64,000 nucleotides of DNA, taken from Eledone cirrhosa (lineage: Eukaryota). The position numbers and the translations under genes are program-made. The notes beneath the pieces were generated by a model. That model was not told the DNA's origin and ran no database searches. It saw only the letters and a program-made list of their open reading frames with translations. How positions within the stretch are numbered: position 1 is the first letter of the stretch; each line of letters begins with the position of its first letter. Below are positions 2,676 through 59,285 of this stretch, piece after piece. Location: positions 101,370,001 through 101,434,000 of the forward strand of contig OZ024746.1 in assembly GCA_964016885.1 (NCBI GenBank), given 5' to 3'.

Positions 2676-3925
2676 GGTGGGCCACATTGCTCTTGTCAGT
2701 GGGCCACATTGCTATGCAGTGTCTTGTCAGTGGGCCACATTGCTCTTGTCAGTGGGCCACATTGCTCTTGTCAGTGGGCCACATTGCTATGCAGTGTCCC
2801 GTCAGTGGGCCACATTGCTATGCAGTGTCTTGTCAGTGGGCCACATTGCTATGCAGTGTCTTGTCAGTGGACCACATTGCTACACAGTGTCCCGTCAGTG
2901 GGCCACATTGCTATGCAGTGTCTTGTCAGTGAGCCACATTGCTATGCAGTGTCTTGTCAGTGGGCCACATTGCTACACAGTGTCTTGTCAGTGGACCACA
3001 TTGCTATGCAGTGTCTTGTCAGTGGGCCACATTGCTATGCAGTGTCCCGTCAGTGGGCCACATTGCTACACAGTGTCTTGTCAGTGAGCCACATTGCTAT
3101 GCAGTGTCTTGTCAGTGGGCCACATTGCTATGCAGTGTCCCGTCAGTGGGCCACATTGCTACACAGTGTCCCGTCAGTGGGCCACATTGCTATGCAGTGT
3201 CTTGTCAGTGGGCCACATTGCTATGCAGTGTCCCGTCAGTGGGCCACATTGCTATGCAGTGTCTTGTCAGTGGGCCACATTGCTATGCAGTGTCCCGTCA
3301 GTGGGCCACATTGCTATGCAGTGTCCCGTCAGTGGGCCACATTGCTACACAGTGTCCCATCAGTGGGCCACATTGCTATGCAGTGTCTTGTCAGTGGGCC
3401 ACATTGCTATGCAGTGTCCCGTCAGTGAGCCACATTGCTATGCAGTGTCCCGTCAGTGAGCCACATTGCTATGCAGTGTTTTGTCAGTGGGCCACATTGC
3501 TATGCAGTGTCCCGTCAGTGGGCCACATTGCTATGCAGTGTCCCGTCAGTGGGCCACATTGCTATGCAGTGTCCCGTCAGTGGGCCACATTGCTATGCAG
3601 TGTCCCGTCAGTGGGCCACATTGCTATGCAGTATCCCGTCAGTGGGCCACATTGCTATGCAGTGTCCCGTCAGTGGGCCACATTGCTACACAGTGTCCCG
3701 TCAGTGGGCCACATTGCTACACAGTGTCCCGTCAGTGGGCCACATTGCTATGCAGTGTCCCGTCAGTGGGCCACATTGCTATGCAGTGTCCCGTCAGTAG
3801 GCCACATTGCTATGCAGTGTCCCATCAGTGGGCCACATTGCTATGCAGTGTCCCGTCAGTGAGCCACATTGCTATGCAGTGTCTTGTCAGTGGGCCACAT
3901 AGCTATGCAGTGTCCCGTCAGCGGG
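2676..3925. repeat. 31-bp minisatellite, ~40 copies
   Basis: Unit gtcagtgggccacattgctatgcagtgtccc; explains the repetitive ORFs here. Confidence 0.97.
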
Positions 3926-4643
3926 CCATGATATCAAATAAGGAATGACAACATATGTAAAAACGAAAACAGTAATATGATTAAAATACTGATACTGTGA
4001 CAAAACCCCGACACCTGGCGGAGTATTTAGATCAGGGTTGCCATTTGTTCAATGAAAAACTTTACTTCCAATAAAACTGAACACTTTTAATATAGAAAAA
4101 TATGTAAACATTGATTATTATGAAATACAGTCACAGATGTTTTACTACCAGACAGCTAACTCAAATGGAAGATTTTGAGGATGAAATGAAATAACTTTAT
4201 GTCAGACACACTGACTTGATTTTGGTAAGTCTGGGTCGTTCCACATCCCTGCCATACATATACTATGTATGTACGTATATACACTTACACACACAGTCTC
4301 CTTGACCTCGATGTCTGACTATTCTCTCTGTCTGAGTTTGATTGTTTGTTACTGTCACATTAAAACATTAAGTTCAACTGAGTCTTGTGGCCAGACATGT
4401 TCTCTGGTCGGTTTTATAATCAGGGATTACTTAGCCTAAGACTGAAACCTGTTGACGGACCGCTGTTCTATAACATAATTGTAATGCTACATAGTTGCTT
4501 CAACTGCTAGAATTAACAGTCAAATTACCCTAATAAAAATTGGAGATGAATATAGTGGATAAAATATTTCTGCTATATGTGAGAGAGAAGATATTTACAG
4601 CAGCTAGAATGTTAGTTGATCAATGACAACAAAAACATAAGTA

Positions 4644-9673: not shown

Positions 9674-10213
9674 GTGTACTCTTGTTGCCCATCTATGAAG
9701 TCCAAAATCACCAGCTCAAACCGGACGAGAATAAATCCAGGATGCAGTTGCAGGAAGCCGGACAAATGCCCATTGCAGGGTAGATGTAACACTAAATCTG
9801 TCGTTTATGAGGCTACGATAACACCAGTAATCAACAACCAGCCAGCCAGGAGTGAGCGATATGTCGGTATGACCCAGGACAGGTTTAAAACCAGATTTTA
9901 CTCACATGTCGCTTCTTTTAAGCACTCCGATAAACGAACATCAATGGCCCTCGCAAGTAAGGTGTGGGAACTCAAGGATAGTAACATCCCGTACTCTATT
10001 GATTGGTCTATATTAGACCATTCGAGGGAGTACCAAAGGGGCACAAAGAATTGTTCTTTGTGTACCACAGAAAAGTATAGGATTTTGCTAAACTTGAGAG
10101 ACACTTCCGCTTGCCTTAATTCAAAGACTGAGATCTTCAGATGCTGTCCTCATCTGAGACCGCACCTGATCTGTAACTGGATTGACACTCCTATGAGAAA
10201 TCAACCGCCTTGA
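9674..10213 (+). mobile_element. Penelope-like element, 5'-truncated; GIY-YIG endonuclease coding region
   Basis: CSCRKPDKCPLQGRCNTKSVVYEA...YVGMTQDRFKTRFYSH...CSLCTTEK...LNSKTE, the typical PLE endonuclease C-terminus. Confidence 0.9.
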
Positions 10214-12555: not shown

Positions 12556-12615
12556 TTTCATTCTGAGGATTGAAAGCAAAACCTTTTGCTTTTAAGAAAC
12601 CACTGGTAAATGGAA
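12556..12615 (+). ncRNA. Type I hammerhead ribozyme (Penelope 3' repeat copy 2)
   Basis: Stem I UUUCAUU/AAUGGAA; core CUGAGGA; 11-bp stem II UUGAAAGCAAA/UUUGCUUUUAA; GAAAC-CACUG-GUA cleavage triplet. Confidence 0.8.
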
Positions 12616-22715: not shown

Positions 22716-23177
22716 CCCCCTCCATACACACACACACATGTGTGTGTGTTTGTGTGTATATTATGACTCATACACTGTTCACTTTCCTGACATTTGCACA
22801 TTACTCTATGTACTATACATGCATCTTTGATGAATTATAGTGCACCTGAGCACTGTACAGATTAATTTTCAATATTACTATATGCAGACATAGCTGTGTG
22901 GTTAAGTTCACTTTATAGCCATTTTTAAAGCGATGAAATTCCAATGAAGGTTGGAAAATCACTGACGAAGGACTATTTTTATCATATGTAACCCATGTGC
23001 AACCACGCAGTATTCTTTCTTCTCATTTCGCATGTTTTATATATATATATATATATATATAAGTTGTAATATAATGAAACGAAATTTCATTTCTCACTCT
23101 TAGTATGGCACTTACTTAAATGTAAGTATGTATGTATACGTACATACATATATGTATACAGACGTACAGTAGCATGC

Positions 23178-23208
<31 letters not shown>

Positions 23209-23361
23209 CATACAGGTACACATATATATATGTACGTATCAGTTTAGCGAACGTTTATTATAACGCCCACTTTGTCCGTTTGTAAACAAGCGAACAGCCT
23301 GATTTATGCCATACGGTGTTAAGGCAACCACGTCACCTTTTTGTTCAACACTGACACAGGA

Positions 23362-23404
23362 ACGATGTACTAGTTTCAAGCTTGTTAGCTATCATCAGCA
23401 CCGT
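23362..23404 (-). ncRNA. Minimal type I hammerhead ribozyme
   Basis: ACGGUG-CUGAUGA-UAGCUAACAAGCUU-GAAA-CUAG-UA-CAUCGU: 6-bp stem I, AGCU/AGCU stem II, palindromic ACUAGU stem III, GUA site. Confidence 0.88.
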
Positions 23405-23673
23405 ATACCCTTCTGCCAGATAGTTGAACGTTCGAAAGTATATACTTTCCTTATGAAAATTAACGGCTGAGCAGCCTAATTTGCATATCGAGTGAGTTCA
23501 GTAGGCCAGGCGTACCGAAAACGATAAGTTGTAATATAATGAAACAAAATTTCATTTCTCACTCTTAGTACGGCACTTACTTAAATGTAAGTATGTATGT
23601 ATACGTACATACATATATGTATACAGACGTACAGTAGCATGCATATATACATATATATCTGGCAGAAGGGTAT

Positions 23674-23716
23674 ACGGTGCTGATGATAGCTAACAAGCTT
23701 GAAACTAGTACATCGT
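23674..23716 (+). ncRNA. Minimal type I hammerhead ribozyme (inverted identical copy)
   Basis: Same 43-nt sequence as 23362-23404 on the opposite strand. Confidence 0.88.
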
Positions 23717-23921
23717 TCCTGTGTCAGTGTTGAACAAAAAGGTGACGTGGTTGCCTTAACACCGTATGGCATAAATCAGGCTGTTCGCTTGTTTACAAAC
23801 GGACAAAGTGGGCGTTATAATAAACGTTCGCTAAACTGATACGTACATATATATATATGTGTACCTGTATGTATATATATATATATATATGTATATATGC
23901 ATGCTACTATACATACATACT

Positions 23922-23962
<41 letters not shown>

Positions 23963-23966
<4 letters not shown>

Positions 23967-24245
23967 TTAATTAAAAGCATTTTGAAGACCATAAGCCATT
24001 GTTTTAAAGTAGTGACAAATTCACTCACTTTGATCTCAGCAAACAGGGGAGATAAGCCGACAAGACTTGTTTCGCTTTGGTTGAAGCTTATCAAGGCCAA
24101 CTACCCCACCTGTCTACTGAGATCATCGATGTTAAAACAATAGCTTACGGTCTTCAAAATGCTTTTAATTAAGCATAAAGTGTATTGCAAAATACATTAT
24201 ATATACATCCATATATATATTGCTATTTCAGAGCTCCAATTCTAA
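23963..24245. mobile_element. Foldback element with a hammerhead at its apex
   Basis: ttaattaaaagcattttgaagacc / ggtcttcaaaatgcttttaattaa and tgatctcag / ctgagatca inverted arms; related sequence at ~59000-59255. Confidence 0.7.
24055..24098 (-). ncRNA. Type I hammerhead ribozyme, U3:A8 core variant
   Basis: GGCC-UUGAUAA-GCUUCAACCAAAGC-GAAA-CAAGUCUUG-UC-GGCU; GUC triplet; stem I extends into a long rod. Confidence 0.75.
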
Positions 24246-24720
24246 TTTTTATATATATATATATATATATGTCTGTATATATATATAGACATACAAACAC
24301 ACATATATATATATACACATGCATACATACACATATTTACACAAACAAGTTTTTTTTTCTAGAATATAGGCCAAGAGGCACAAAACAAAATTAATCTGTT
24401 GACTGAAATAAGGTGATGGATGAAGAGCTTCAACTTGAAACTGCAGATCAAGGAAATAATTGTTAATCCTACAGTATTCCTCCTCATCTACCAATCTTCT
24501 CCTCCTCCTCTATCAACCCCCTCCTCCCCATCTACTAAGTTCCTCTCAGAGAGCATTAGTTGGAGGATAAGTAGAACACACTCAGTAAAGGTACTATGTA
24601 CTTACAAAGAAAGTTTCTAAATCTCACAACCATGTTTGCACCCAATCATTAATTGATTAATTACTAATCTGCATAATTTCATTAACTAATATTTTAGTTA
24701 AGAGCTTTTAGTCTACTTAC

Positions 24721-26272: not shown

Positions 26273-27500
26273 ATCAGCACCACCACCACCACCACCACCA
26301 CCACCACTACCACCACCACTACCACCACCATAGATGTGGTGGCCATTGGCAAGACCAGAGTTTCTGATGTAAAAGCCTCTGCAGCCATTTTCACCAGCTA
26401 CAAGGTGAACACATCTCCTAACCACCTGGGATTTGGAGATGGAGTTGCTATGTTGTACTGGAAAGACCTGCATCTTGTAATTTGGACTGTCTTACTGGCT
26501 AGTGGCCATCTATATATTGACAGGGGCCGGATGAACTGAATTCTTTAGGTGCCTGGAGAGATTTCTAGGAAAATCCCGCTCTTTAGTGTTAGTGGGTGAC
26601 TGGAATGGTACCTTGGATGCATGCTAGGACTGTGTGGGACTAGTGGAAAGGGGAGGAGGGTGTAAATGCCTTGCAACACTTTGCTCAAATGTTTGGGAGC
26701 AGTGACAAGCTGAATTGTGGGATGAACTTCACTGCCTACCCTGATAACCTTCTGCTGCTCTTGGCAACAGAGGTGGAGTGTTGTGAAAAGCCGATAACAG
26801 CCGCTGAAACGTGGGAGGCAATGACTGGCTGCACAAGGGGTAAATCACCCAATTTGGATGCTCTGCTCTACGAGCTTTATGTTTATAGACCAAATTTGTT
26901 TGGTGGCCTCTTGGCAGATGTCTACTGCATCTGGCAGAGGAATAGCCCAGTTCTGTGAGCCAAGGAGAAGTAGCACTACTGAGAAAGGACCCAAACAAAG
27001 GGATTATATTCATAATTTCAGGCCCATAACTGTACTAAATGCAGAGTTCAAAATCTTAGCCAAGGTGTTAGCAACGAGGTCAGCACTCATTATCAGTGGT
27101 TTGGTAAGAGAGGTGCAGACATGTGCCATTCTGAAGAAATCCATCCATGACAACCTCCACCTTATGTGATGCATCATAGAGAGGGTGGCTAAGGAACCTT
27201 GCATGAGGGGGGCATTGATAAACTTAGATCAATGAAAAGCATTCAATAGGGTTGACCATCGGTACCTGGCCCTCAAAGTAGCCGGCTTTGGGCCCATTTC
27301 AGAGGGTGGATTGTTGCTATGCACAGTGACATCTGCTCTATGGTTAGAGTGAACAGTCACCTCTCGGAACCATTCAACATCATGCGTTCGGTCCACCAAG
27401 GCTGTCCCCTCACGTCCTTGTATGTATTGACTCTCGAACAACTACTGCTCAAATTGGAGACATTGAAAGGTATGTTGCATGAACATGGGAGATCAGTGTC
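25489..27500 (+). mobile_element. Degraded relic related to the L1/Tx1-type element at 34128-39767
   Basis: CHNCKK*GH knuckle remnant; SRSLVLVGDWNGTLDA; GKSPNLDALLYELY; NFRPITVLNAEFKILAKVLA; RSVHQGCPL. Confidence 0.8.
26099..26330. repeat. (CAA)n/(CCA)n trinucleotide repeat
   Basis: Directly visible. Confidence 0.95.
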
Positions 27501-32680: not shown

Positions 32681-33285
32681 TGTGCAGCTTTCTTCACAGG
32701 GTAAGATGGCTGAGCTAAGTGGGCTTGGTGGGTAGGTCTATTCTTCAACAGAAAATACCACAAAGTATTTTGTCAGATAAATAACTCTGCCAATCAACCA
32801 CCTTTCATAAATAATCAATATCTTAATCTCTCCAAAATAATCAATAGCTTAACCTCTCCCTGCAACAATCCACTATGTCGATATTTCATTTCATATATAG
32901 AAGCATTACATGGTTGCATGAGAACGTTCCATTAGGGATATGATGCAAGTTTTGACTGGTATGAATTTCCAAAATATCTCTTCTGTATTTATTTCAGCTC
33001 TTAGTCCACTCATGCAAACAGAATTAAGATGAGAGGCAAATAAAACATCTACTTCCAAATCCAAGTTTTGATGATTCATTTTCTTAACCTACTACTTCAG
33101 AGGATATTATCAAGATTAAAAACTATAGACATCTTTAAACTCTTTAGCATTTAAACTGGCCGAATCTGGCCAGAATTATCTCACCTCTTTCTCTTCAAAC
33201 CGACTGTAACCAGATGTTCATACTTATGATAAGGTAATGTTCTCAAAATAAATAATATCAAGATCTCATAAATTCGATAAAATAA

Positions 33286-34127
33286 TTATGTGAGGTAAAG
33301 CCTTTACTGTGACAATACAATAGTATATATAGAGTAATGTAAATGTTATGTGAGATATTATGTGAGGTAAAGCCTTTACTGTGACAATACAATAGTATAT
33401 ATAGAGTAATGTAGATGTTATGTGAGATATTATGTGAGGTAAAGACTTTACTGTGACAATACAATAGTAAATATAGAGTAATGTAAATGTTATGTGAGAT
33501 ATTATGTGACGTAAAGCCTTTACTGTGAAAATACAATAGTATATATAGAGTAATGTAGATGGTATGTGAGATATTATGTGAGGTAAAGCCTTTACTGTGA
33601 CAATACAATAGTAAATATAGAGTAATGTAAATGTTATGTGAGATATTATGTGACGTAAAGCCTTTACTGTGAAAATACAATAGTATATATAGAGTAATGT
33701 AGATGGTATGTGAGATATTATGTGAGGTAAAGCCTTTACTGTGACAATACAATAGTAAATATAGAGTAATGTAAATGTTATGTGAGATATTATGTGACGT
33801 AAAGCCTTTACTGTGAAAATACAATAGTATATATAGAGTAATGTAGATGGTATGTGAGATATTATGTGAGGTAAAGCCTTTACTGTGACAATACAATAGT
33901 ATATATAGAGTAATGTAGATGGTATGTGAGATATTATGTGAGGTAAAGCCTTTACTGTGACAATACAATAGTAAATATAGAGTAATGTAAATGTTATGTG
34001 AGATATTATGTGACGTAAAGCCTTTACTGTGAAAATACAATAGTATATATAGAGTAATGTAGATGGTATGTGAGATATTATGTGAGGTAAAGCCTTTACT
34101 GTGACAATACAATAGTATATATAGAGT
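33286..34127. repeat. 60-bp minisatellite, left part (~14 copies)
   Basis: Unit ttatgtgaggtaaagcctttactgtgacaatacaatagtatatatagagtaatgtaaatgttatgtgagata-type with 60-bp period. Confidence 0.95.
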
Positions 34128-34364: not shown

Positions 34365-37300
34365 CTACAGGCTGATATAGAGAGAAGACCCATTCACTCT
34401 GGCCATTCTCCCTACTTTCACCCACCTTTCATAAAACTTGCTGGGGTAGAGCACCTCTCTCTCCATTCTGATCCTTCTTTTAAAATGGTATTTGAAAAAG
34501 GGGACCAGTTGTTGGCCGGAGAGAAGGGTGTCTGACCTCAGCCCTTTCAGCCTCGTCCACCATACAACTTCTTTAGCCATGGCTACCACACAGAGAAAAA
34601 CCGCCTCTCCTTCGTTTTTGAAAGGGGGGGGCGGTTTGATCGTGACAATGGACTCGGTGGTCAACCGGATTGGTCCCACCCTCGACAGTAGTCGTTCCAC
34701 ATAGCCCCACAGGTCAGCAATGCCTGGGCAGTGTACGAATGCGTGCGCAACGGTTTCGTCATCATGCACGCATCTCGGACAGATCTTATTCAAAGGATCT
34801 CTACCCAGGCTCCCATGCCTGTGGAGCTTGTCTCGAACGGGTAGAGCCCCTCGGTAGCACTGCCAAGCCAGGGACTTTTGGAAGTTGTCCATCGGTCCAG
34901 GGCCAAACGTCCTACCGAACAGACTGGCCAGTTCATCTTCCTCCATGCCTAGAGCTTCTCCGAGAGCATCGTCGCACCTGCTGCGTACCAACCCTCTATA
35001 GAATGTCGAGGTGGAGTCTCCACTGATTGCCGGGTCCGCTTTCCAGAGGGCCGTGAGCGCCTGGGCACATTCAATGTGCCAGTCGCCCACTTTTCTCGGT
35101 CTTTGCTTGACCCAGGATTGCAGCTCGGTGAGCGAGACGAGTCTGGGAAAGGCTCGCCTCACAAACGGGGCCCACACCGGTTGACCGGTGAGGAATACCT
35201 GGAGGTGCCGTAGCCTTAATGCGTGTTTACGCATCTGTAGCCACGGCATCCCCAGCCCTCCTTTCGAAGGGTGTTGACAGCAGATGGATCTCCTCACCAA
35301 AGGGGTCCGCTTGTTCCAAAGAAATTGGAACAGCGCGCACTCCATTTTGGCGAGTCTTTTCACTGGGCAAGGCACGACGGTCAAGCGGTAGTAGATGACG
35401 GATGCTATATAAGTATTCGCCACCTCCGCTCGACCTTTCAGGGATAGTTTGCACTGGGCCCACTTCTGGGTGAGTGCAAACACCCTGGCCGTTACCTCGT
35501 TCCAGTTTTTCTCCACCTGGAGGTCTGGTCCGAACCAGACCCCAAGCAGCTTCACCGGGCCCTCCGTCCAGCGTCCGACGACGTCGTTGGAGGGCATCGG
35601 TTTGCCTCTCCATGTTCCGAGTTGCAAACCGACGGACTTGTCCCGGTTCAGCTTGGCTCCTGTAAACCTTTCATATTCCTCCAGTAAGGTGCCGATCTCA
35701 CCGATTTGCGAGGTTTTCGACACCATTACTGTCACGTCATCGGCGTAGGCCGACGCCGCTTTCTGCAATCCCGGTTCCAAAGGGATGCCCTGCAACCGCT
35801 CCAACTTCCGCAGTAGTGGCTCAAGAGCCAGCACATACAGTAGGGAGGAGAGAGGGCATCCCTGTCGGATGGATCGCATGATTTGGAACGGCTCCGAGAG
35901 GTGGCCGTTCACCTTGACCCTTGAGCAGACGTTGCTGCTGTGCATCGCAGCAATCCAACCCCTGAAAACGGGTCCGAAGCCTGCCGCCGCGAGCACCGCA
36001 TCCAGGTAACGATGGTCAACCCTATCGAAAGCTTTAGATTGATCCAAGTTGATCAGGGCCCCACCAAAGCCGGGTTCATTCCCTACCCTCTCTATGATGT
36101 ATCGCATAAGGTGGAGATTGTCGTGAATGGACCTGGACGGGATTGCGCATGTCTGCGCTTCTCCCACCAGGTTTCCAACGACAAGCGCCAACCTCTTCGC
36201 TAACACCTTGGCCAAAATCTTTAACTCTGTATTTAGCAGAGTTATGGGCCTGAAGTTACTTATGTCATCCCCCTTGTTCTCATCCTTCCTCACCAGCGTA
36301 ACTACGCCCTTGGTCACAGAACTGGGAATTCTCCCGTTCTGCTGCCAGTTGCAGTAGACCGCTTCGAGGATATCGGAGAACAAGTCCGGCATCGCTACAT
36401 ATAGCTCGTATGGTAGACCATCGAGACCCGGGGATTTGCGTTTGCCGCATTGGCTCAGCGCCGCCCCTATCTCAGCAGCTGAAATCGTCCTTTCGCAGGA
36501 CTTCGCCTCCGCGTCCGAGAGGCGCGGCAGACCGTCGAGGTATGGATTGAAATCCATAGTCTCACCCGGCGCGCCGCCCCTCTCGAACAGTCGTGCAAAG
36601 TGCCGCTGAAAGGCCGCACACATCTGCCCAGGTTCAAGGATCACACGCCCATCCTGGTCCTTCAAAGACCGAATCGTGGACTTGTTCCCACTTTTTGCCT
36701 CTGTCACTCGGGCCCAGCTTACAGCTTTGGCTCCCTCATTACCCAGAGCACGTATTTTACTCCTGACAACGCAGCCTTCATGCTTCACCTCAAAGAACTG
36801 GTCTAAGGCCATTCTTGATGCTAGCATGCCGGCTACATTGCCACTCCTAATCGCCTCTTCTACTCTATCTACTAATTCCCTTTCCGTCTTGTTCCTATCC
36901 CTTGCTAATTCCTGACTAAAACCTATCGATTCTATTCTAATTGCTCTCTTAAGAGAGCTCCACCACCTGTTGTTGACAATTGCCCCTGTCAAACTCTGCT
37001 TAACTAACGTGCTAATCCGTTTACTGTAAGCTTTGCTTCTCGGTAAGGACAAGTTCAGCTTCCAGTAACCGGGTCCCTGTCTATGGGTTCTATCAAGGTT
37101 GGCTATGCAGGTCACTAACTTGTGATCCGAATAGTCAACCATGAACATTTTTGGACAGCTAAATGTGTCCCTATCCTTCTCTCTAACTAGGACCCTATCT
37201 AGGTACGACCTAGATGTTCCACTGCGATTGGTCCACGTCCATAGTGGTACAGTCGGAAAATCTAGTCGATATCTATCGGCCAGGTCAAATCGGCCGATTA

Positions 37301-39767: not shown

Positions 39768-40215
39768 AGATGTTATGTGAGATATTATGTGAGGTAAAGC
39801 CTTTACTGTGAAAATACAATAGTAAATATAGAGTGATGTAAATGTTATGTGAGATATTATGTGTGGTAAAGCCTTTACTGTGATAATACAATAGTATATA
39901 TAGGATAATGTAAATGTTATGTGACATATTATGTGAGGTAAAGCATTTACTGTAACAATACAATAGTTTATATAGAGTAATGTAAATGTTATGTGAGATA
40001 TTATGTCAGGTAAAGCCTTTACTGTGAAAATACAATAGTAAATATAGAGTAATGTAAATGTTATGTGAGATATTATGTGAGGTAAAGCCTTTACTGCGAA
40101 AATATAATTGTTTCTACTTTTGGCACAAGGCCAGCAAATACCCAGTGTATTACTGGTACTTTATTTTATCGACCCCTGCGAAAATATAATAGTATATATA
40201 GAGTAATGTGAATGT
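39768..40215. repeat. 60-bp minisatellite, right part (with SINE fragment at ~40104-40176)
   Basis: Same unit as 33286-34127. Confidence 0.9.
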
Positions 40216-40593
40216 TAAAAGGTTAAGGTGGTTGATTGGCAGGTAATTGTTCCTACTCTAAGCATTCAGATGTCAAATTCTGCTGAGGCCGACTTTTATC
40301 CTTTTGGATAAATAAAATGTCAGCCAAATATTGGTGTTAGTTAATTCAGTCATTTTCTTCCACCCCTCTCTCTTAGAATTGGATGTGTTGTAAGATTGTT
40401 CTGAGTAACTACTCAGTGTTCCTTTCCTCTAAAAATGGAATAGAGTGAGAGAGGGGTCAGTATCCATCTTTCATCTAGTATATCAGAAAAGCATCCCATG
40501 AAACAATAAAACATGTATAGACAGACCAATGTGCTGTATTAAAGTTGATATATTCACATTTGTTAACAAAAGTTGAAATGTAGATGTACATGC

Positions 40594-46348: not shown

Positions 46349-46366
46349 GGTTATATTCCCAGGTAT

Positions 46367-49300
46367 ATCTAGACGGTGTAGTCCTACAGTGAAGATCTAG
46401 ATGGTGTAGTCCTACAGTGAAGATCTAGATGGTGTAGTTCTATAGTAAAGATCTAGACGGTGTAGTCCTACAGTGAAGATCTAGATGGTGTAGTCCTACA
46501 GTAAAGATCTAGATGGTGTAGTTCTATAGTAAAGATCTAGACGGTGTAGTCCTACAGTGAAGATCTAGATGGTGTAGTCCTACAGTAAAGATCTAGATGG
46601 TGTAGTCCTATAGTGAAGATCTAGATGGTGTAGTCCTACAGTAAAGATCTAGATGGTGTAGTTCTACAGTAAAGATCTAGATGGTGTAGTCCTACAGTGA
46701 AGATCTAGATGGTGTAGTTCTACAGTAAAGATCTAGATGGTGTAGTCCTACAGTGAAGATCTAGATGGTGTAGTCCTACAGTAAAGATCTAGATGGTGTA
46801 GTCCTACAGTAAAGATCTAGATGGTGTAGTCCTACAGTAAAGATCTAGATGGTGTAGTCCTACAGTAAAGATCTAGATGGTGTAGTCCTACAGTGAAGAT
46901 CTAGATGGTGTAGTCCTACAGTAAAGATCTAGATGGTGTAGTCCTACAGTAAAGATCTAGATGGTGTAGTCCTACAGTAAAGATCTAGATGGTGTAGTCC
47001 TACAGTAAAGATCTAGATGGTGTAGTCCTACAGTGAAGGTCTAGTTGGTGTTGTCCTACAGTGAAGTTCTAGATGGTGTAGTCCTACAGTAAAGATCTAG
47101 ACGGTGTAGTCCTACAGTGAAGAACTAGATGGTGTAGTTCTATAGTAAAGATCTAGATGGTGTAGTCCTACAGGGAAGATATAGATGGTGTAGTCCTACA
47201 GTAAAGATCTAGATGGTGTAGTTCTATAGTAAAGATCTATATGGTGTAGTCCTATAGTGAAGGTCTAGATGGTGTAGTTCTATAGTGAAGATCTAGATGG
47301 TGTAGTCCTACAGTAAAGATCTAGATGGTGTAGTCCTGTAGTAAATGTCTAGATGGTGTAGTTCTATAGTAAAGATCTAGATGGTGTAGTCCTACAGTGA
47401 AGATCTAGATGGTGTAGTCCTACAGTGAAGATCTAGATGGTGTAGTCCTACAGTAAAGATCTAGATGGTGTAGTCCTGTAGTAAATGTCTAGATGGTGTA
47501 GTTCTATAGTAAAGATCTAGATGGTGTAGTCCTACAGTGAAGAACTAGATGGTGTAGTTCTATAGTAAAGATCTAGATGGTGTAGTCCTACAGTAAAGAA
47601 CTAGATGGTGTAGTCCTACAGTGGAGATCTAGATGGTGTAGTCCTACAGTAAAGATCTAGATGGTGTAGTCCCACAGTAAAGATCTAGATGGTGTAGTCT
47701 TACAGTCAAGGTCTAGTTGGTGTAGTCCTACAGTGAAGATCTAGATGGTGTAGTCCTACAGTAAAGATCTAGATGGTGTAGTCCTACAGTAAAGATCTAG
47801 ATGGTGTAGTCCTATAGTGAAGGTCTAGATGGTGAAGTCCCACAGTAAAGATCTAGATGGTGTAGTCCTACAGTGAAGAACTAGATGGTGTAGTCCTACA
47901 GTAAAGATCTAGATGGTGTAGTTCTATAGTAAAGATCTAGATGGTGTAGTTATGTAGTAAATGTCTAGATCGTGTAGTCCTACAGTAAAGATCTAGATGG
48001 TGTAGTTCTATAGTAAAGATCTAGCTGGTGTAGTCCTACAGTCAAGGTCTAGTTGGTGTAGTCCTACAGTAAAGATCTAGATGGTGTAGTCCTACAGTAA
48101 AGATCTAGATGGTGTAGTCCTACAGTAAAGATCTAGATGGTGTAGTCCTACAGTAAAGATCTAGATGGTGTAGTCCTACAGTGAATGTCTAGATGTTGTA
48201 GTCCTACAGTAAAGATCTAGATGGTGTAGTCCTACAGTAAAGGTCTAGATGGTGTAGTCCTACAGTGAAGATCTAGATGGTGTAGTCCTACAGTAAAGAT
48301 CTAGATCGTGTAGTCCTGCAGTAAAGATCTAGATGGTGTAGTCCTACAGTGAAGAACTAGATGGTGTAGTCCTAGAGTAAAGATCTAGATGGTGTAGTCC
48401 CACAGTAAAGATCTAGATCGTGTAGTCCTACAGTAAAGATCTAGATGGTGTAGTCCTACAGTGAAGAACTAGATGGTGTAGTCCTACAGTAAAGATCTAG
48501 ATGGTGTAGTCCCACAGTAAAGATCTAGATCGTGTAGTCCTACAGTAAAGATCTAGATGGTGTAGTCCTACAGTGAAGAACTAGATGGTGTAGTCCTGTA
48601 GTAAATGTCTAGATGGTGTAGTCCTACAGTGAAGATCTAGATGGTGTAGTCCTACAGTAAAGATCTAGATGGTGTAGTCCTACAGTGAAGATCTAGATGG
48701 TGTAGTCTTACAGTAAAGATCTAGATGGTGTAGTCCTACAGTGAAGATCTAGATGGTGTAGTCCTACAGTGAAGGTCTAGATGTTGTAGTCCTACAGTGA
48801 ATGTCTAGATGTTGTAGTCCTACAGTGAAGATCTAGATGGTGTAGTCCTACAGTGGAGATCTAGATGGTGTAGTCCTACAGTGAAGATCTAGATGGTGTA
48901 GTCCTACAGTGAAGATCTAGATGGTGTAGTCCTACAGTGAAGATCTAGATGGTGTAGTCCTGTAGTAAATGTCTAGATGGTGTAGTCCCACAGTAAAGAT
49001 CTAGATCGTGTAGTCCTACAGTGAAGATCTAGATGGTGTAGTCCTACAGTGGAGATCTAGATGGTGTAGTCATACAGTGGAGATCTAGATGGTGTAGTCA
49101 TACAGTGAAGATCTAGATGGTGTAGTCCTACAGTGAAGATCTAGATGGTGTAGTCCTACAGTGGAGATCTAGATGGTGTAGTCATACAGCGGAGATCTAG
49201 ATGATGTAGTCCTACAGTGAAGATCTAGATGGTGTAGTCCTACAGTGAAGATCTAGATGGTGTAGTCCTACAGTAAAGATCTAGATGGTGTAGTCCTACA

Positions 49301-52300
49301 GTGAAGATCTAGATGGTGTAGTCCTACATTGGAGATCTAGATGGTGTAGTCATACAGCGGAGATCTAGATGGTATAGTCCTACAGTGAAGATCTAGATGG
49401 TGTAGTCCTACAGTAAAGATCTAGATGGTGTAGTTCTATAGTAAAGATCTAGATGGTGTAGTCCCACAGTAAAGATCTAGATGGTGTAGTCCCACAGTAA
49501 AGATCTAGATGGGATAGTCCTACAGTGAAGATCTAGATGGTGTAGTCCTACAGTAAAGATCTAGATGGTGTAGTCCCACAGTAAAGATCTAGATGGTGTA
49601 GTCCCACAGTAAAGATCTAGATGGTATAGTCCTACAGTGAAGATCTAGATGGTGTAGTCCTACAGTGAAGATCTAGATGGTGTAGTCCTACAGTGAAGAT
49701 CTAGATGGTGTAGTCCTACAGTAAAGATCTAGATGGTGTAGTCCTACAGTAAAGATCTAGATGGTGTAGTCCTACAGTAAAGATCTAGATGGTGTAGTTC
49801 TATAGTAAAGATCTAGATGATGTAGTCCTACAGTGAAGATCTAGATGGTATAGTCCTACAGTGAAGATCTAGATGGTGTAGTCCTACAGTAAAGATCTAG
49901 ATGGTGTAGTTCTATAGTAAAGATCTAGATGGTGTAGTCCCACAGTAAAGATCTAGATGGTGTAGTCCCACAGTAAAGATCTAGATGGGATAGTCCTACA
50001 GTGAAGATCTAGATGGTGTAGTCCTACAGTAAAGATCTAGATGGTGTAGTCCCACAGTAAAGATCTAGATGGTGTAGTCCCACAGTAAAGATCTAGATGG
50101 TATAGTCCTACAGTGAAGATCTAGATGGTGTAGTCCTACAGTGAAGATCTAGATGGTGTAGTCCTACAGTGAAGATCTAGATGGTGTAGTCCTACAGTAA
50201 AGATCTAGATGGTGTAGTCCTACAGTAAAGATCTAGATGGTGTAGTTCTATAGTAAAGATCTAGATGGTGTAGTCCTACAGTAAAGATGTAGATGGTGTA
50301 GTCCTACAGTGAAGGTCTAGATCACAGGTTCTCAACCCATTTAGGCCAAACACCCACTTTTGTCCCTCGAAATCACGAAACGCCCCCCCCCCCCCGCCTC
50401 CTCTTATGTTTCTATTTTTCAATATACTACTGATTTTTATATCAGTAGATTACTAAAAAATTGATCAACAATATTCCAAAGATGTGTGTATTATCTGATT
50501 ATGTGTTATATGTGGTACTAGATGTGTGTGCTACCCGCTTTTGTCTTTTCTTTTCTTTTTTTATTCCTAATATTATTTATACAATAGGGAATAAAATAGA
50601 TCTACACAGTGTTAACTCGTTACGGTTGAGTCAATAATTTCAGACATGAAATACATTGTATCGGTGAAGGAAAGATAAGATTCTAACTGGCTGCGCTCAT
50701 AGTGTCTTTGACCCAGTTGACTGGGTTTTTCCATTTTTAGGATCTCAATTACCGGTTAACATCTCAATTACCCGACATGCCTGCACACCTGCTCACAGCT
50801 GTGGTCAGACTATAGTTATGCTGTCTGCAAGCTCATTCAAATGCATTCACACTGGCTGTCTCAAAGACATACAAATACGGCTTATAAAACTTACCAAAAT
50901 AAAGAGCTTTCCAGCCCCCCAGCCCCAAACGCCCCCCTAACGCGACCTTGCTCCCAAACGCCCCCCTGGAGTTCCGAAACGCCCCCCGGGGGTGCATATG
51001 CCCCCCGTTGAGAACCTTTGGTCTAGATGGTGTAGTTCTACAGTAAAGATCTAGATGGTGTAGTCCTACAGTAAAGCTCTAGATGGTGTAGTCCTATAGT
51101 GAAGTTCTAGATGGTGTAGTCCTACAGTGAAGATCTAGATGGTGTCGTCCTACAGTAAAGATCTAGATGGTGTCGTCCTACAGTAAAGATCTAGATGGTG
51201 TAGTCCTACAGTGAAGGTCTAGATGGTGTCGTCCTACAGTAAAGATCTAGATGGTGTCGTCCTACAGTAAAGATCTAGATGGTGTAGTCCTACAGTGAAG
51301 GTCTAGATGGTCTAGTCCTGTAGTGAAGGTCTATATGGTTTAGTCCTACAGTAAAGATCTAGATGGTGTAGTCCTACAGTAAAGATCTAGATGGTGTAGT
51401 CCCACAGTAAAGATCTAGATGGTATAGTCCTACAGTGAAGATCTAGATGGTGTAGTCCTACAGTAAAGATCTAGATGGTGTAGTCCTACAGTAAAGATCT
51501 AGATGGTGTAGTCCTACAGTAAAGATCTAGATGGTATAGTCCTACAGTGAAGATCTAGATGGTGTAGTCCTACAGTAAAGATCTAGATGGTGTAGTTCTA
51601 TAGTAAAGATCTAGATGGTGTAGTCCCACAGTAAAGATCTAGATGGTGTAGTCCCACAGTAAAGATCTAGATGGTATAGTCCTACAGTGAAGATCTAGAT
51701 GGTGTAGTCCTACAGTAAAGATCTAGATGGTGTAGTCCCACAGTAAAGATCTAGATGGTGTAGTCCCACAGTAAAGATCTAGATGGTATAGTCCTACAGT
51801 GAAGATCTAGATGGTGTAGTCCTACAGTAAAGATCTAGATGGTGTAGTCCTACAGTAAAGATCTAGATGGTGTAGTCCTACAGTAAAGATCTAGATGGTA
51901 TAGTCCTACAGTGAAGATCTAGATGGTGTAGTCCTACAGTAAAGATCTAGATGGTGTAGTTCTATAGTAAAGATCTAGATGGTGTAGTCCCACAGTAAAG
52001 ATCTAGATGGTGTAGTCCCACAGTAAAGATCTAGATGGTATAGTCCTACAGTGAAGATCTAGATGGTGTAGTCCTACAGTAAAGATCTAGATGGTGTAGT
52101 CCCACAGTAAAGATCTAGATGGTGTAGTCCCACAGTAAAGATCTAGATGGTATAGTCCTACAGTGAAGATCTAGATGGTGTAGTCCTACAGTGAAGATCT
52201 AGATGGTGTAGTCCTACAGTGAAGATCTAGATGGTGTAGTCCTACAGTAAAGATCTAGATGGTGTAGTCCCACAGTAAAGATCTAGATGGTGTAGTCCCA

Positions 52301-52899
52301 CAGTAAAGATCTAGATGGTATAGTCCTACAGTGAAGATCTAGATGGTGTAGTCCCACAGTAAAGATCTAGATGGTATAGTCCTACAGTGAAGATCTAGAT
52401 GGTGTAGTCCTACAGTGAAGATCTAGATGGTGTAGTCCTACAGTAAAGATCTAGATGGTATAGTCCTACAGTGAAGATCTAGATGGTGTAGTCCTACAGT
52501 GAAGATCTAGATGGTGTAGTCCTACAGTGAAGATCTAGATGGTGTAGTCCTACAGTGAAGATCTAGATGGTGTAGTCCTACAGTGAAGATCTAGATGGTG
52601 TAGTCCTACAGTGAAGATCTAGATGGTGTAGTCCTACAGTGAAGATCTAGATGGTGTAGTCCTACAGTGAAGATCTAGATGGTGTAGTCCTACAGTGAAG
52701 ATCTAGATGGTGTAGTCCTACAGTGAAGATCTAGATGGTGTAGTCCTACAGTAAAGATCTAGATGGTATAGTCCTACAGTGAAGATCTAGATGGTGTAGT
52801 CCTACAGTAAAGATCTAGATGGTGTCGTCCTACAGTAAAGATCTAGATGGTGTAGTCCTATAGTAAAGATCTAGATGGTATAGTCCTACAGTGAAGATC
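46367..52899. repeat. 28-bp satellite array (~200 copies) with higher-order structure
   Basis: Unit tctagatggtgtagtcctacagt(g/a)aaga. Confidence 0.98.
50323..51020. mobile_element. hAT (Charlie/Buster-like) non-autonomous element, 698 bp
   Basis: TIRs CACAGGTTCTCAAC / GTTGAGAACCTTTG; perfect 8-bp TSD GTCTAGAT at 50315-50322 and 51021-51028. Confidence 0.93.
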
Positions 52900-58896: not shown

Positions 58897-59045
58897 TATA
58901 TATATGTATATATATATATATATCTATATATATATATATATATATATTGCTGGAGCGGCAACCGCTCTGTTTAATCAGCTCTTAAACATTATTGGAATTC
59001 TATAAGGATCCAGCTTCTATAATTCTCAGTAGAAACGTATGGGTA

Positions 59046-59094
59046 AGTAGTCTTGACAACCGCTAACGACCAAGAAACAGGACTGTCGATTACT
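59046..59094 (+). ncRNA. Type I hammerhead, U3:A8 variant with weak stem II
   Basis: AGUAGUC-UUGACAA-...-GAAA-CAGGACUG-UC-GAUUACU; 7-bp stem I; GUC triplet. Confidence 0.55.
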
Positions 59095-59252
59095 CCCTTT
59101 GTTTTTGCCGAGAATAAGTAAGTGACATAGTCACTACTTTAAAATTTATAGCGAATGGTCTTCAAAATGTTTTTAATTAAACATACAGTATATTATCAAA
59201 TATACTATACATACATTCATATCCACATCGTTATTTCAGAGCACCAATACTA

Positions 59253-59285
<33 letters not shown>

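Follow-up and report, generated by a model that had tools for sequence, protein, structure and literature searches.

What kind of element is a foldback that carries a hammerhead ribozyme with a U3:A8 core pair at its tip? The first-pass annotation of the 64,000-nt stretch of Eledone cirrhosa DNA analyzed here (the window) described such a structure, expected it to be classed as a DNA MITE, and proposed that it may be a rod-shaped self-cleaving RNA element. The hammerhead itself is borne out. A pattern scan and reading of the sequence identify a complete type I hammerhead at 24055-24098 of the minus strand (GGCC-UUGAUAA-GCUU(CAACCA)AAGC-GAA-ACAAG(U)CUUGU-C-GGCU). Stem I pairs 24098-24095 with 24058-24055 and is followed by the core UUGAUAA at 24094-24088 (U3 at 24094, A8 at 24089), stem II at 24087-24074, GAAA at 24073-24070, and stem III to 24060, with cleavage predicted after C17 at 24059. 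The scan returned three motifs in the window, including this one, and none in each of 20 shuffled windows. The element has no match in Rfam at the gathering score, and the gathering threshold of Rfam clan CL00010 was not reached; a full-length match to Hammerhead_HH9 lies below threshold (24.6 bits, E 0.024; gathering score 52). Relatives with canonical cores score even lower on HH9 (19.2 and 17.6), and therefore this model misses this group. The foldback that encloses the hammerhead spans 206 nt (23967-24172) and folds on the minus strand at -119 kcal/mol (z -12), a value equaled by none of 200 shuffles.

A search of the 3.0-Gb genome with the window copy returned 1,068 candidates, whose matches recur at a spacing of 316 nt in both orientations. 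A natural unit from one of these loci (L027) supplies the reference numbering used throughout (core at 109-115, C17 at 144) and, as a query, retrieved near-identical tandem copies (95-100% identity), one array comprising about 26 units. We refer to this group as family A. Among 219 copies that span the ribozyme at 67 loci (3 duplicates having been dropped from 70), U occupies position 3 in 218 and A occupies position 8 in all 219, counts in which young copies are favored because the loci are the top matches. Only 10 of 2,464 core cells differ (0.4%), compared with 1.1-1.9% elsewhere in the unit. The exact core 22-mer occurs 1,302 times genome-wide (control 0), and the same 22-mer with both bases changed does not occur in the genome at all. 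The suggestion that the double change is a family trait rather than decay is upheld by these counts, the pair being fixed in the consensus of family A. One truncated fragment outside the 219 copies (L078) has the core UCGAUGA. The first 100 exact cores map to 45 places, from which we extrapolate roughly 600 family A loci genome-wide.

The 316-nt unit lies within the range of about 150 to 450 nt described for the tandem units of retrozymes, occurs in arrays of up to about 26, and contains a single type I hammerhead. Neither a protein-coding ORF nor an LTR is present in the unit sequence, and RT/EN matches are absent within units; a 28-codon frame in families A and B was dropped, since by reading it is frameshifted in family C. 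As far as DNA alone can indicate, family A would qualify as a non-LTR retrozyme. A compensatory change occurs within family A in stem III (136T with 140A). Folded as a circle, the unit is branched, with 58% of its bases paired (z -7.7 against 60 shuffles). In the nearest-neighbor fold the ensemble is more stable than the active hammerhead conformation by 6.8 kcal/mol; an "off" fold created by U3 was considered and rejected because the C3:G8 families are equally blocked (7.8-9.0 vs. 4.0-6.7 kcal/mol). Contigs of four runs of unrecorded kind list no change at core positions 3 or 8, which carries no weight on expression. Single low-depth contigs of sequencing runs X4 and X5, from two other organisms, match family A closely, one over 284 nt with 1 difference and the other over about 320 nt with 10 differences and the 136T/140A haplotype; relatives, carry-over, and contamination are all possible sources.

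With this unit as the reference, the window hairpin resolves into one truncated head-to-head insertion of the family A tandem repeat. The left arm (23965-24134, minus strand) corresponds to unit 69-236, 5'-truncated and with its 3' end leftward. Its outer end reads CC at 23966-23965 followed by (AT)n, and these two bases suggest the short "284" end after a 36-nt deletion of unit 237-272. The right arm (24132-24251, plus strand) is unit 196-315, likewise 5'-truncated, ends in the long "310-316" end with its tail, and has no differences from the reference copy. The arms overlap by 3 nt at their junction (24132-24134), and the insertion is flanked by its (TA)n target at 23923-23964 and 24252-24270. 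The element's right end is consequently at 24251 rather than at 24245 as annotated, and the foldback arms, which do exist, fail to enclose the whole element, because 79 nt of the right arm run on beyond the stem.

The "rod" (23967-24172) is three things: an intrinsic hammerhead helix, an intrinsic small hairpin, and an outer stem that results from overlap of the arms. The long helix extends stem I (24032-24124, minus strand) and is supported by folding and by compensatory changes between families; it is more stable on the minus strand than on the plus strand (-36.6 vs. -24.8 kcal/mol), G-U pairs favoring the former. The small hairpin (about 24006-24031, minus strand) holds a GTGAGT motif resembling a splice donor (24028-24023). 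Both of these structures are common to every unit. The outer stem of 41 bp (23967-24007 with 24132-24172) exists because both truncated arms contain unit 196-236, and its two differences are G-U pairs on the minus strand. With one hammerhead and less than one unit per arm, the window copy would not release a monomer, and it falls short of the two or more consecutive hammerhead units by which Li et al. define an "active" copy, whereas other loci of the family have 2 to about 26 hammerheads. It is a truncated family member and ordinary debris of a repeat family.

The arrangement of arms was examined in all 99 insertions compared, of which 72 are two-armed and 27 one-armed, and in a position-sampled set of 46 insertions that takes in every locus among the first 100 exact cores independently of architecture. 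Arm lengths range from 58 to 2,069 nt. In two-armed insertions both outer ends are 3' ends of the unit, and where both ends are standard, 53 of 55 pair an end near 284 with one at 310-316 (binomial p 4e-14); one insertion has two short ends, one has two long ends, and 17 of the 72 have a nonstandard end. The position-sampled set contains 33 head-to-head insertions, 28 of them pairing the 284 with the 310-316 end and none with like ends. One-armed insertions carry the short end in 13 cases, the long end in 13, and another end in 1. The two ends differ by a tail of 26-32 nt, and an (AT)5 stretch of the unit itself runs into the target, which blurs the exact place of the 284 end. Most outer 3' ends adjoin (TA)n, indicating a bias for microsatellite targets. 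An inverted 5'-truncated partner (72 of 99 insertions) combined with a one-sided tail (53 of 55) is the footprint of Penelope-like elements (PLEs). The length of the target-site duplication is illegible inside (TA)n, and one insertion outside such a tract (L017) shows a duplication of about 6 nt; this locus had been considered a chimera, a reading rejected because it is an insertion into an older relative of PLE-2.

These data bear directly on the two identities first considered. MITEs and foldback DNA transposons are short and non-coding, with inverted ends and TA-rich targets, and a transposon of this type, with terminal inverted repeats, a TA target duplication, and the hammerhead as a passenger, would account for the inverted ends and the TA-rich targets at this locus. 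Family A insertions, by contrast, have neither a fixed length nor symmetric terminal inverted repeats: their arms vary more than 30-fold in length, their ends differ by the tail, more than a quarter have a single arm, their units are arranged head to tail, and the center of the unit is its most conserved part. Variable length and one-armed copies refute the MITE reading, whose probability we consider negligible, and the earlier preference for an element borne by RNA is sustained by the same features. A self-cleaving RNA that functions as the 206-nt foldback, tipped by the hammerhead, could draw on the high stability of the rod, on the persistence of both outer-stem differences as G-U pairs on the minus strand, and on 10 of 51 junctions in a first sample that resemble that of the window. 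All ten of these came from the window-copy query, however; junctions of similar geometry number 0 of 27 with the unit query and 3 of 33 in the position-sampled set, and none is identical. The 33 two-armed insertions of that set have 32 distinct junctions, the only repeated one being a local duplication, and 21 of the 33 show junction overlaps of 1-6 nt. Since, in addition, the right arm is an ordinary unit that continues past the stem and the unit folds into a branched structure, the proposed rod-shaped element is largely refuted by the spread of junctions and is very improbable, if marginally less so than the MITE.

The identity of the template can be approached through variation shared between arms. 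Opposite arms were compared at 11 polymorphic sites and match in 93-99% of pairs, where 52-86% would be expected (at site 89, in 122 of 125 pairs vs. 0.52 expected), so both arms were copied from one haplotype. In a sample of 77 arms, for which presence of the hammerhead core was required, 69 cross the cleavage site, 28 of them at least twice, and 51 are longer than one unit. The 5' ends do not pile up at the cleavage site, with 2 of 102 junction ends at 140-150. Together, these observations imply that the template was not a cut linear monomer, and a circle or an uncut multimer would both fit. An exponential fit to the arm lengths failed (p 0.001), which says little because the sample requires the hammerhead. 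Variants common to subsets of units in three arrays (L083, L092, and L093) are not accounted for by a single monomer circle and point to multimeric templates or later shuffling. Two arms (L019 1301-1348 and L078 775-881) have 3' ends at 142-143, 1-2 nt short of the predicted cleavage site, and were possibly copied from cleaved RNA, two cases being too few to weigh. At two further loci (L027 2072-2700 and L195 1500-3150) a nonstandard unit end adjoins a piece of PLE that is 5'-truncated and runs in the same direction; these joints are ambiguous between a template switch and a later insertion.

We consider it highly likely that the hairpin is a head-to-head, doubly 5'-truncated insertion of a U3:A8 316-nt non-LTR retrozyme, likely made by the enzymes of a Penelope-like element. 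Directly established are the 316-nt unit and its arrangement in tandem, insertion into (TA)n, two fixed 3' ends with one on each arm, variation among junctions, a haplotype common to both arms, and conservation of the fold. On the proposed route, an array would be transcribed, its predicted hammerheads would cut between units, and a monomer would be ligated into a circle. A Penelope protein with RT and GIY-YIG domains would cut both strands of a (TA)n target, and two cDNAs would be primed on the same template, one at about 284 and the other at 310-316. Each would continue beyond the cleavage site for a variable length before the two cDNA 5' ends joined via microhomology. For the window copy, both cDNAs would have stopped early, overlapping at unit 196-236 to give the outer stem.

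The unit may also contain an intron. Motifs resembling a donor (GTRAGT; in families B and D, GTAAGT) and an acceptor (TTTCAG) are conserved in families A, B, and D and would delimit an intron of 121 nt that contains the 284 start. In the window copy the TTTCAG (24226-24231, plus strand), which is inside the most conserved terminal word of the superfamily, and the donor-like motif are on opposite arms. Family C is without the donor-like motif, conservation of which could be explained by its hairpin alone, a genome search for a spliced DNA copy returned no matches, and the contigs of the four runs contain no splice joint and carry no weight for or against splicing. Given these three observations, the intron is treated as hypothetical. 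A more specific version of the mechanism is tentative and, taken as a whole, rather unlikely. It holds that a Penelope enzyme dimer, acting on both strands of cut (TA)n, makes two simultaneous copies of one circular RNA of 316 nt, each from its own fixed start; that a spliceosomal intron of 121 nt (unit 175-295) is retained in the circle; and that the superfamily would document rolling-circle integration of retrozymes directly in the genome, with C3:G8 and U3:A8 cores swapped more than once in one lineage. Under this version one start site would lie inside the putative intron, so that only unspliced circles could move.

A sister copy in the window (58949-59253) led to family B, and further searches led to families C, D, and F. 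This older family B copy is about 73% identical to the hairpin's sequence, has a U3:A8 core, and lies in an AT tract of another repeat. Parsed cores are U:A in 247 of 250 cases in family A, 22 of 25 in family B, and 5 of 6 in family F (the other being C:G), and C:G in 28 of 29 in family D and 200 of 200 in family C; the counts for A and C are inflated by overlapping loci, and unparsed copies are not counted. When both core columns are masked, a tree of 26 natural copies has well-supported branches that force at least two switches between U:A and C:G, although the tree is unrooted and recombination could affect this number. The change from C:G to U:A may have proceeded by two transitions via a U-G wobble, an array being able to carry a weak unit. 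Across 15 aligned rows, which come from five families and so are not independent, 92.9% of cells are paired and 16 of 28 pairs have changed on both sides, compared with 0-4 in slid controls. A 15-nt terminal word occurs 28,022 times genome-wide (control 4), and all 27 loci examined fall within these families. Family C (L266, L268, L279, L280, and L283) forms very young head-to-head C3:G8 arrays of 310-311-nt units, up to about 16 per array, with a minimal palindromic stem III; it is dense at the start of C1, and in L268 N7 is A throughout. Another common U3:A8 family (UUGAAAA) is built on a different scaffold (L118, L126, L256, L260, L273, and L277).

Searches for an autonomous partner of family A, which yielded none, covered PLE-1 and PLE-2, which have no sequence in common with the 316-nt unit; a loose-end probe, which returned no matches; and the loci examined, none of which contains an RT plus GIY-YIG ORF in or in register with units. 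A Pfam search on two PLE fragments returned no name. The genome does contain a young autonomous Hydra-type PLE (L131-L139; L134 2279-5059), with open frames to about 930-970 codons and the RWK, DKT, and CxCX5C marks of the Hydra clade. It is unrelated to family A, and its insertions have the same architecture, with a U3:A8 core (UUGAGAA hammerhead), insertion into (TA)n, and two fixed ends separated by 164 nt, which makes a tail much longer than the published 30-40 bp. Its C-terminal part has 60,317 first-look candidates in the genome. A second young PLE with many identical copies (L170-L171 and L142) has a 455-codon frame overlapping a 784-codon RT-EN frame and about 1.1 kb between tandem copies, and the hammerhead pattern scan of it was negative.

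The window itself holds other sequences of this kind. An adjacent foldback (23059-23951) is also two-armed and derives from an unrelated unit of about 465 nt; it has canonical CUGAUGA hammerheads near 23681 (plus strand) and 23397 (minus strand), palindromic stem III, and one long and one short end; related sequence is present in 21 of 236 sequences compared. Hammerheads at 12563 (plus strand) and 55629 (minus strand) combine C3:G8 cores with a long stem II and a palindromic stem III, and probably mark the ends of further Penelope-like families. At 9770-10087 lies a GIY-YIG fragment from a Hydra-like PLE, and a degraded RT-like fragment, named by reading only, lies at 26920-27459 and is repeated at 35799-36359. 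Minisatellite arrays with periods of 28/56, 72, and 31 nt occupy 46365-52899, 33285-34127, 39768-40217, and 2677-3928.

Two other accounts keep the link to Penelope-like elements. The same family and the same type of integration could have used an uncleaved linear multimer as the template, with a hammerhead that is slow, protein-dependent, or dispensable and arrays that grow later by unequal crossover; this overlaps the preferred explanation and differs solely in the template step. It agrees with the in vitro behavior of the anole element PAc, whose hammerhead is dispensable for insertion and whose main substrate is unprocessed RNA (PMC11167929), with the local amplification proposed by Li et al. 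(bioRxiv 10.64898/2026.07.22.740005), and with mosaic arrays and local duplications (L061, L077, L083, L087, and L201). Conservation and covariation of the core and stems across families argue against it, as do the one-armed insertions, which by inspection have no common 5' flank of a source locus, and multi-site haplotypes that are usually uniform over all units and both arms. We regard it as a serious possibility but not the probable one. Units could otherwise be detached terminal repeats (pLTRs) of an autonomous PLE left by 5' truncation, rather than an independent family, in line with the relationship of Xenopus retrozymes to pLTRs (bioRxiv 10.64898/2026.07.22.740005) and with splice-like motifs in the unit, as in some pLTRs. 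This is improbable, since at the family A loci examined what precedes a unit on its 5' side is a further unit and never a PLE 3' UTR, arrays are long, and none of the 27 terminal-motif loci adjoins a PLE ORF in register.

A retrozyme integrated by Penelope-type enzymes therefore remains the preferred reading, and family A bears on which enzyme moves animal retrozymes. PLEs have been called "strong" or "likely" movers on the basis of co-occurrence and pLTR similarity (PMC7229834; bioRxiv 10.64898/2026.07.22.740005); in the main texts searched, such mobilization is a stated candidate and no demonstration from end footprints was found. What is possibly new here is evidence from a genome on the integration of retrozymes: the Penelope footprint marks a young family almost without exception, with a short and a long end, one haplotype, and copying through the cleavage site. 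For in vitro tests, family A also offers a 316-nt substrate with defined start sites, and its sister families are natural C3:G8 and U3:A8 versions of a single scaffold. In this genome, families A, B, and F and one young autonomous PLE would escape any search that requires CUGANGA.

The core pair is a compensatory variant, as first annotated, but less unusual than that annotation implied. Natural U3-A8 covariants have been published (PMC3088659), and the pair is fixed in a family of about 1,300 PLE-related motifs of Schistosoma (Cercyon PLE of Schistosoma mansoni, PMC4209133). The Cercyon hammerheads share this compensatory pair with family A; the Schistosoma motifs fit a minimal-hammerhead descriptor and are mostly single, whereas stem III of family A comprises 4 bp, its units are arrayed in tandem, and its homologous sister families have C3:G8.

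Family A resembles the non-LTR retrozymes of metazoans (PMC7229834, Cervera and de la Pena 2020; bioRxiv 10.64898/2026.07.22.740005, Li, Clavereau and Pollet 2026) in its non-coding tandem unit of about 300 nt with one type I hammerhead each, low GC, monomers to multimers, lack of an LTR, and coexisting autonomous PLEs. It differs in the U3:A8 pair and in its mostly head-to-head insertions with two fixed ends in (TA)n. The terms "inverted" and "target site" do not occur in the main text of PMC7229834, and "tail" does not occur in the main text of bioRxiv 10.64898/2026.07.22.740005; the supplements may show inverted insertions. Eight of nine predicted Xenopus retrozyme dimers showed no cleavage in vitro (bioRxiv 2026.07.22.740005), which counts against the preferred explanation.

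Among PLEs, partial tandems, an inverted 5'-truncated copy, and a one-sided tail of 30-40 bp have been described, and Chlamydomonas has non-autonomous derivatives with tandem insertions (PMC8557442, Craig et al. 2021). In vitro work on the anole PLE protein shows cutting and extension of both strands, with two internal starts bounding the tail (PMC11167929, Frangieh et al. 2024). Family A shares with these EN+ PLEs 5' truncation, partial tandems, an inverted 5'-truncated partner, a one-sided tail, (TA)n bias, and a hammerhead in the repeat. It differs in having no ORF, a tail of 26-32 rather than 30-40 nt, full stems II and III in place of a minimal hammerhead, and starts at AT-rich words matching the target, whereas PAc starts at a site non-homologous to the cut DNA (PMC11167929).
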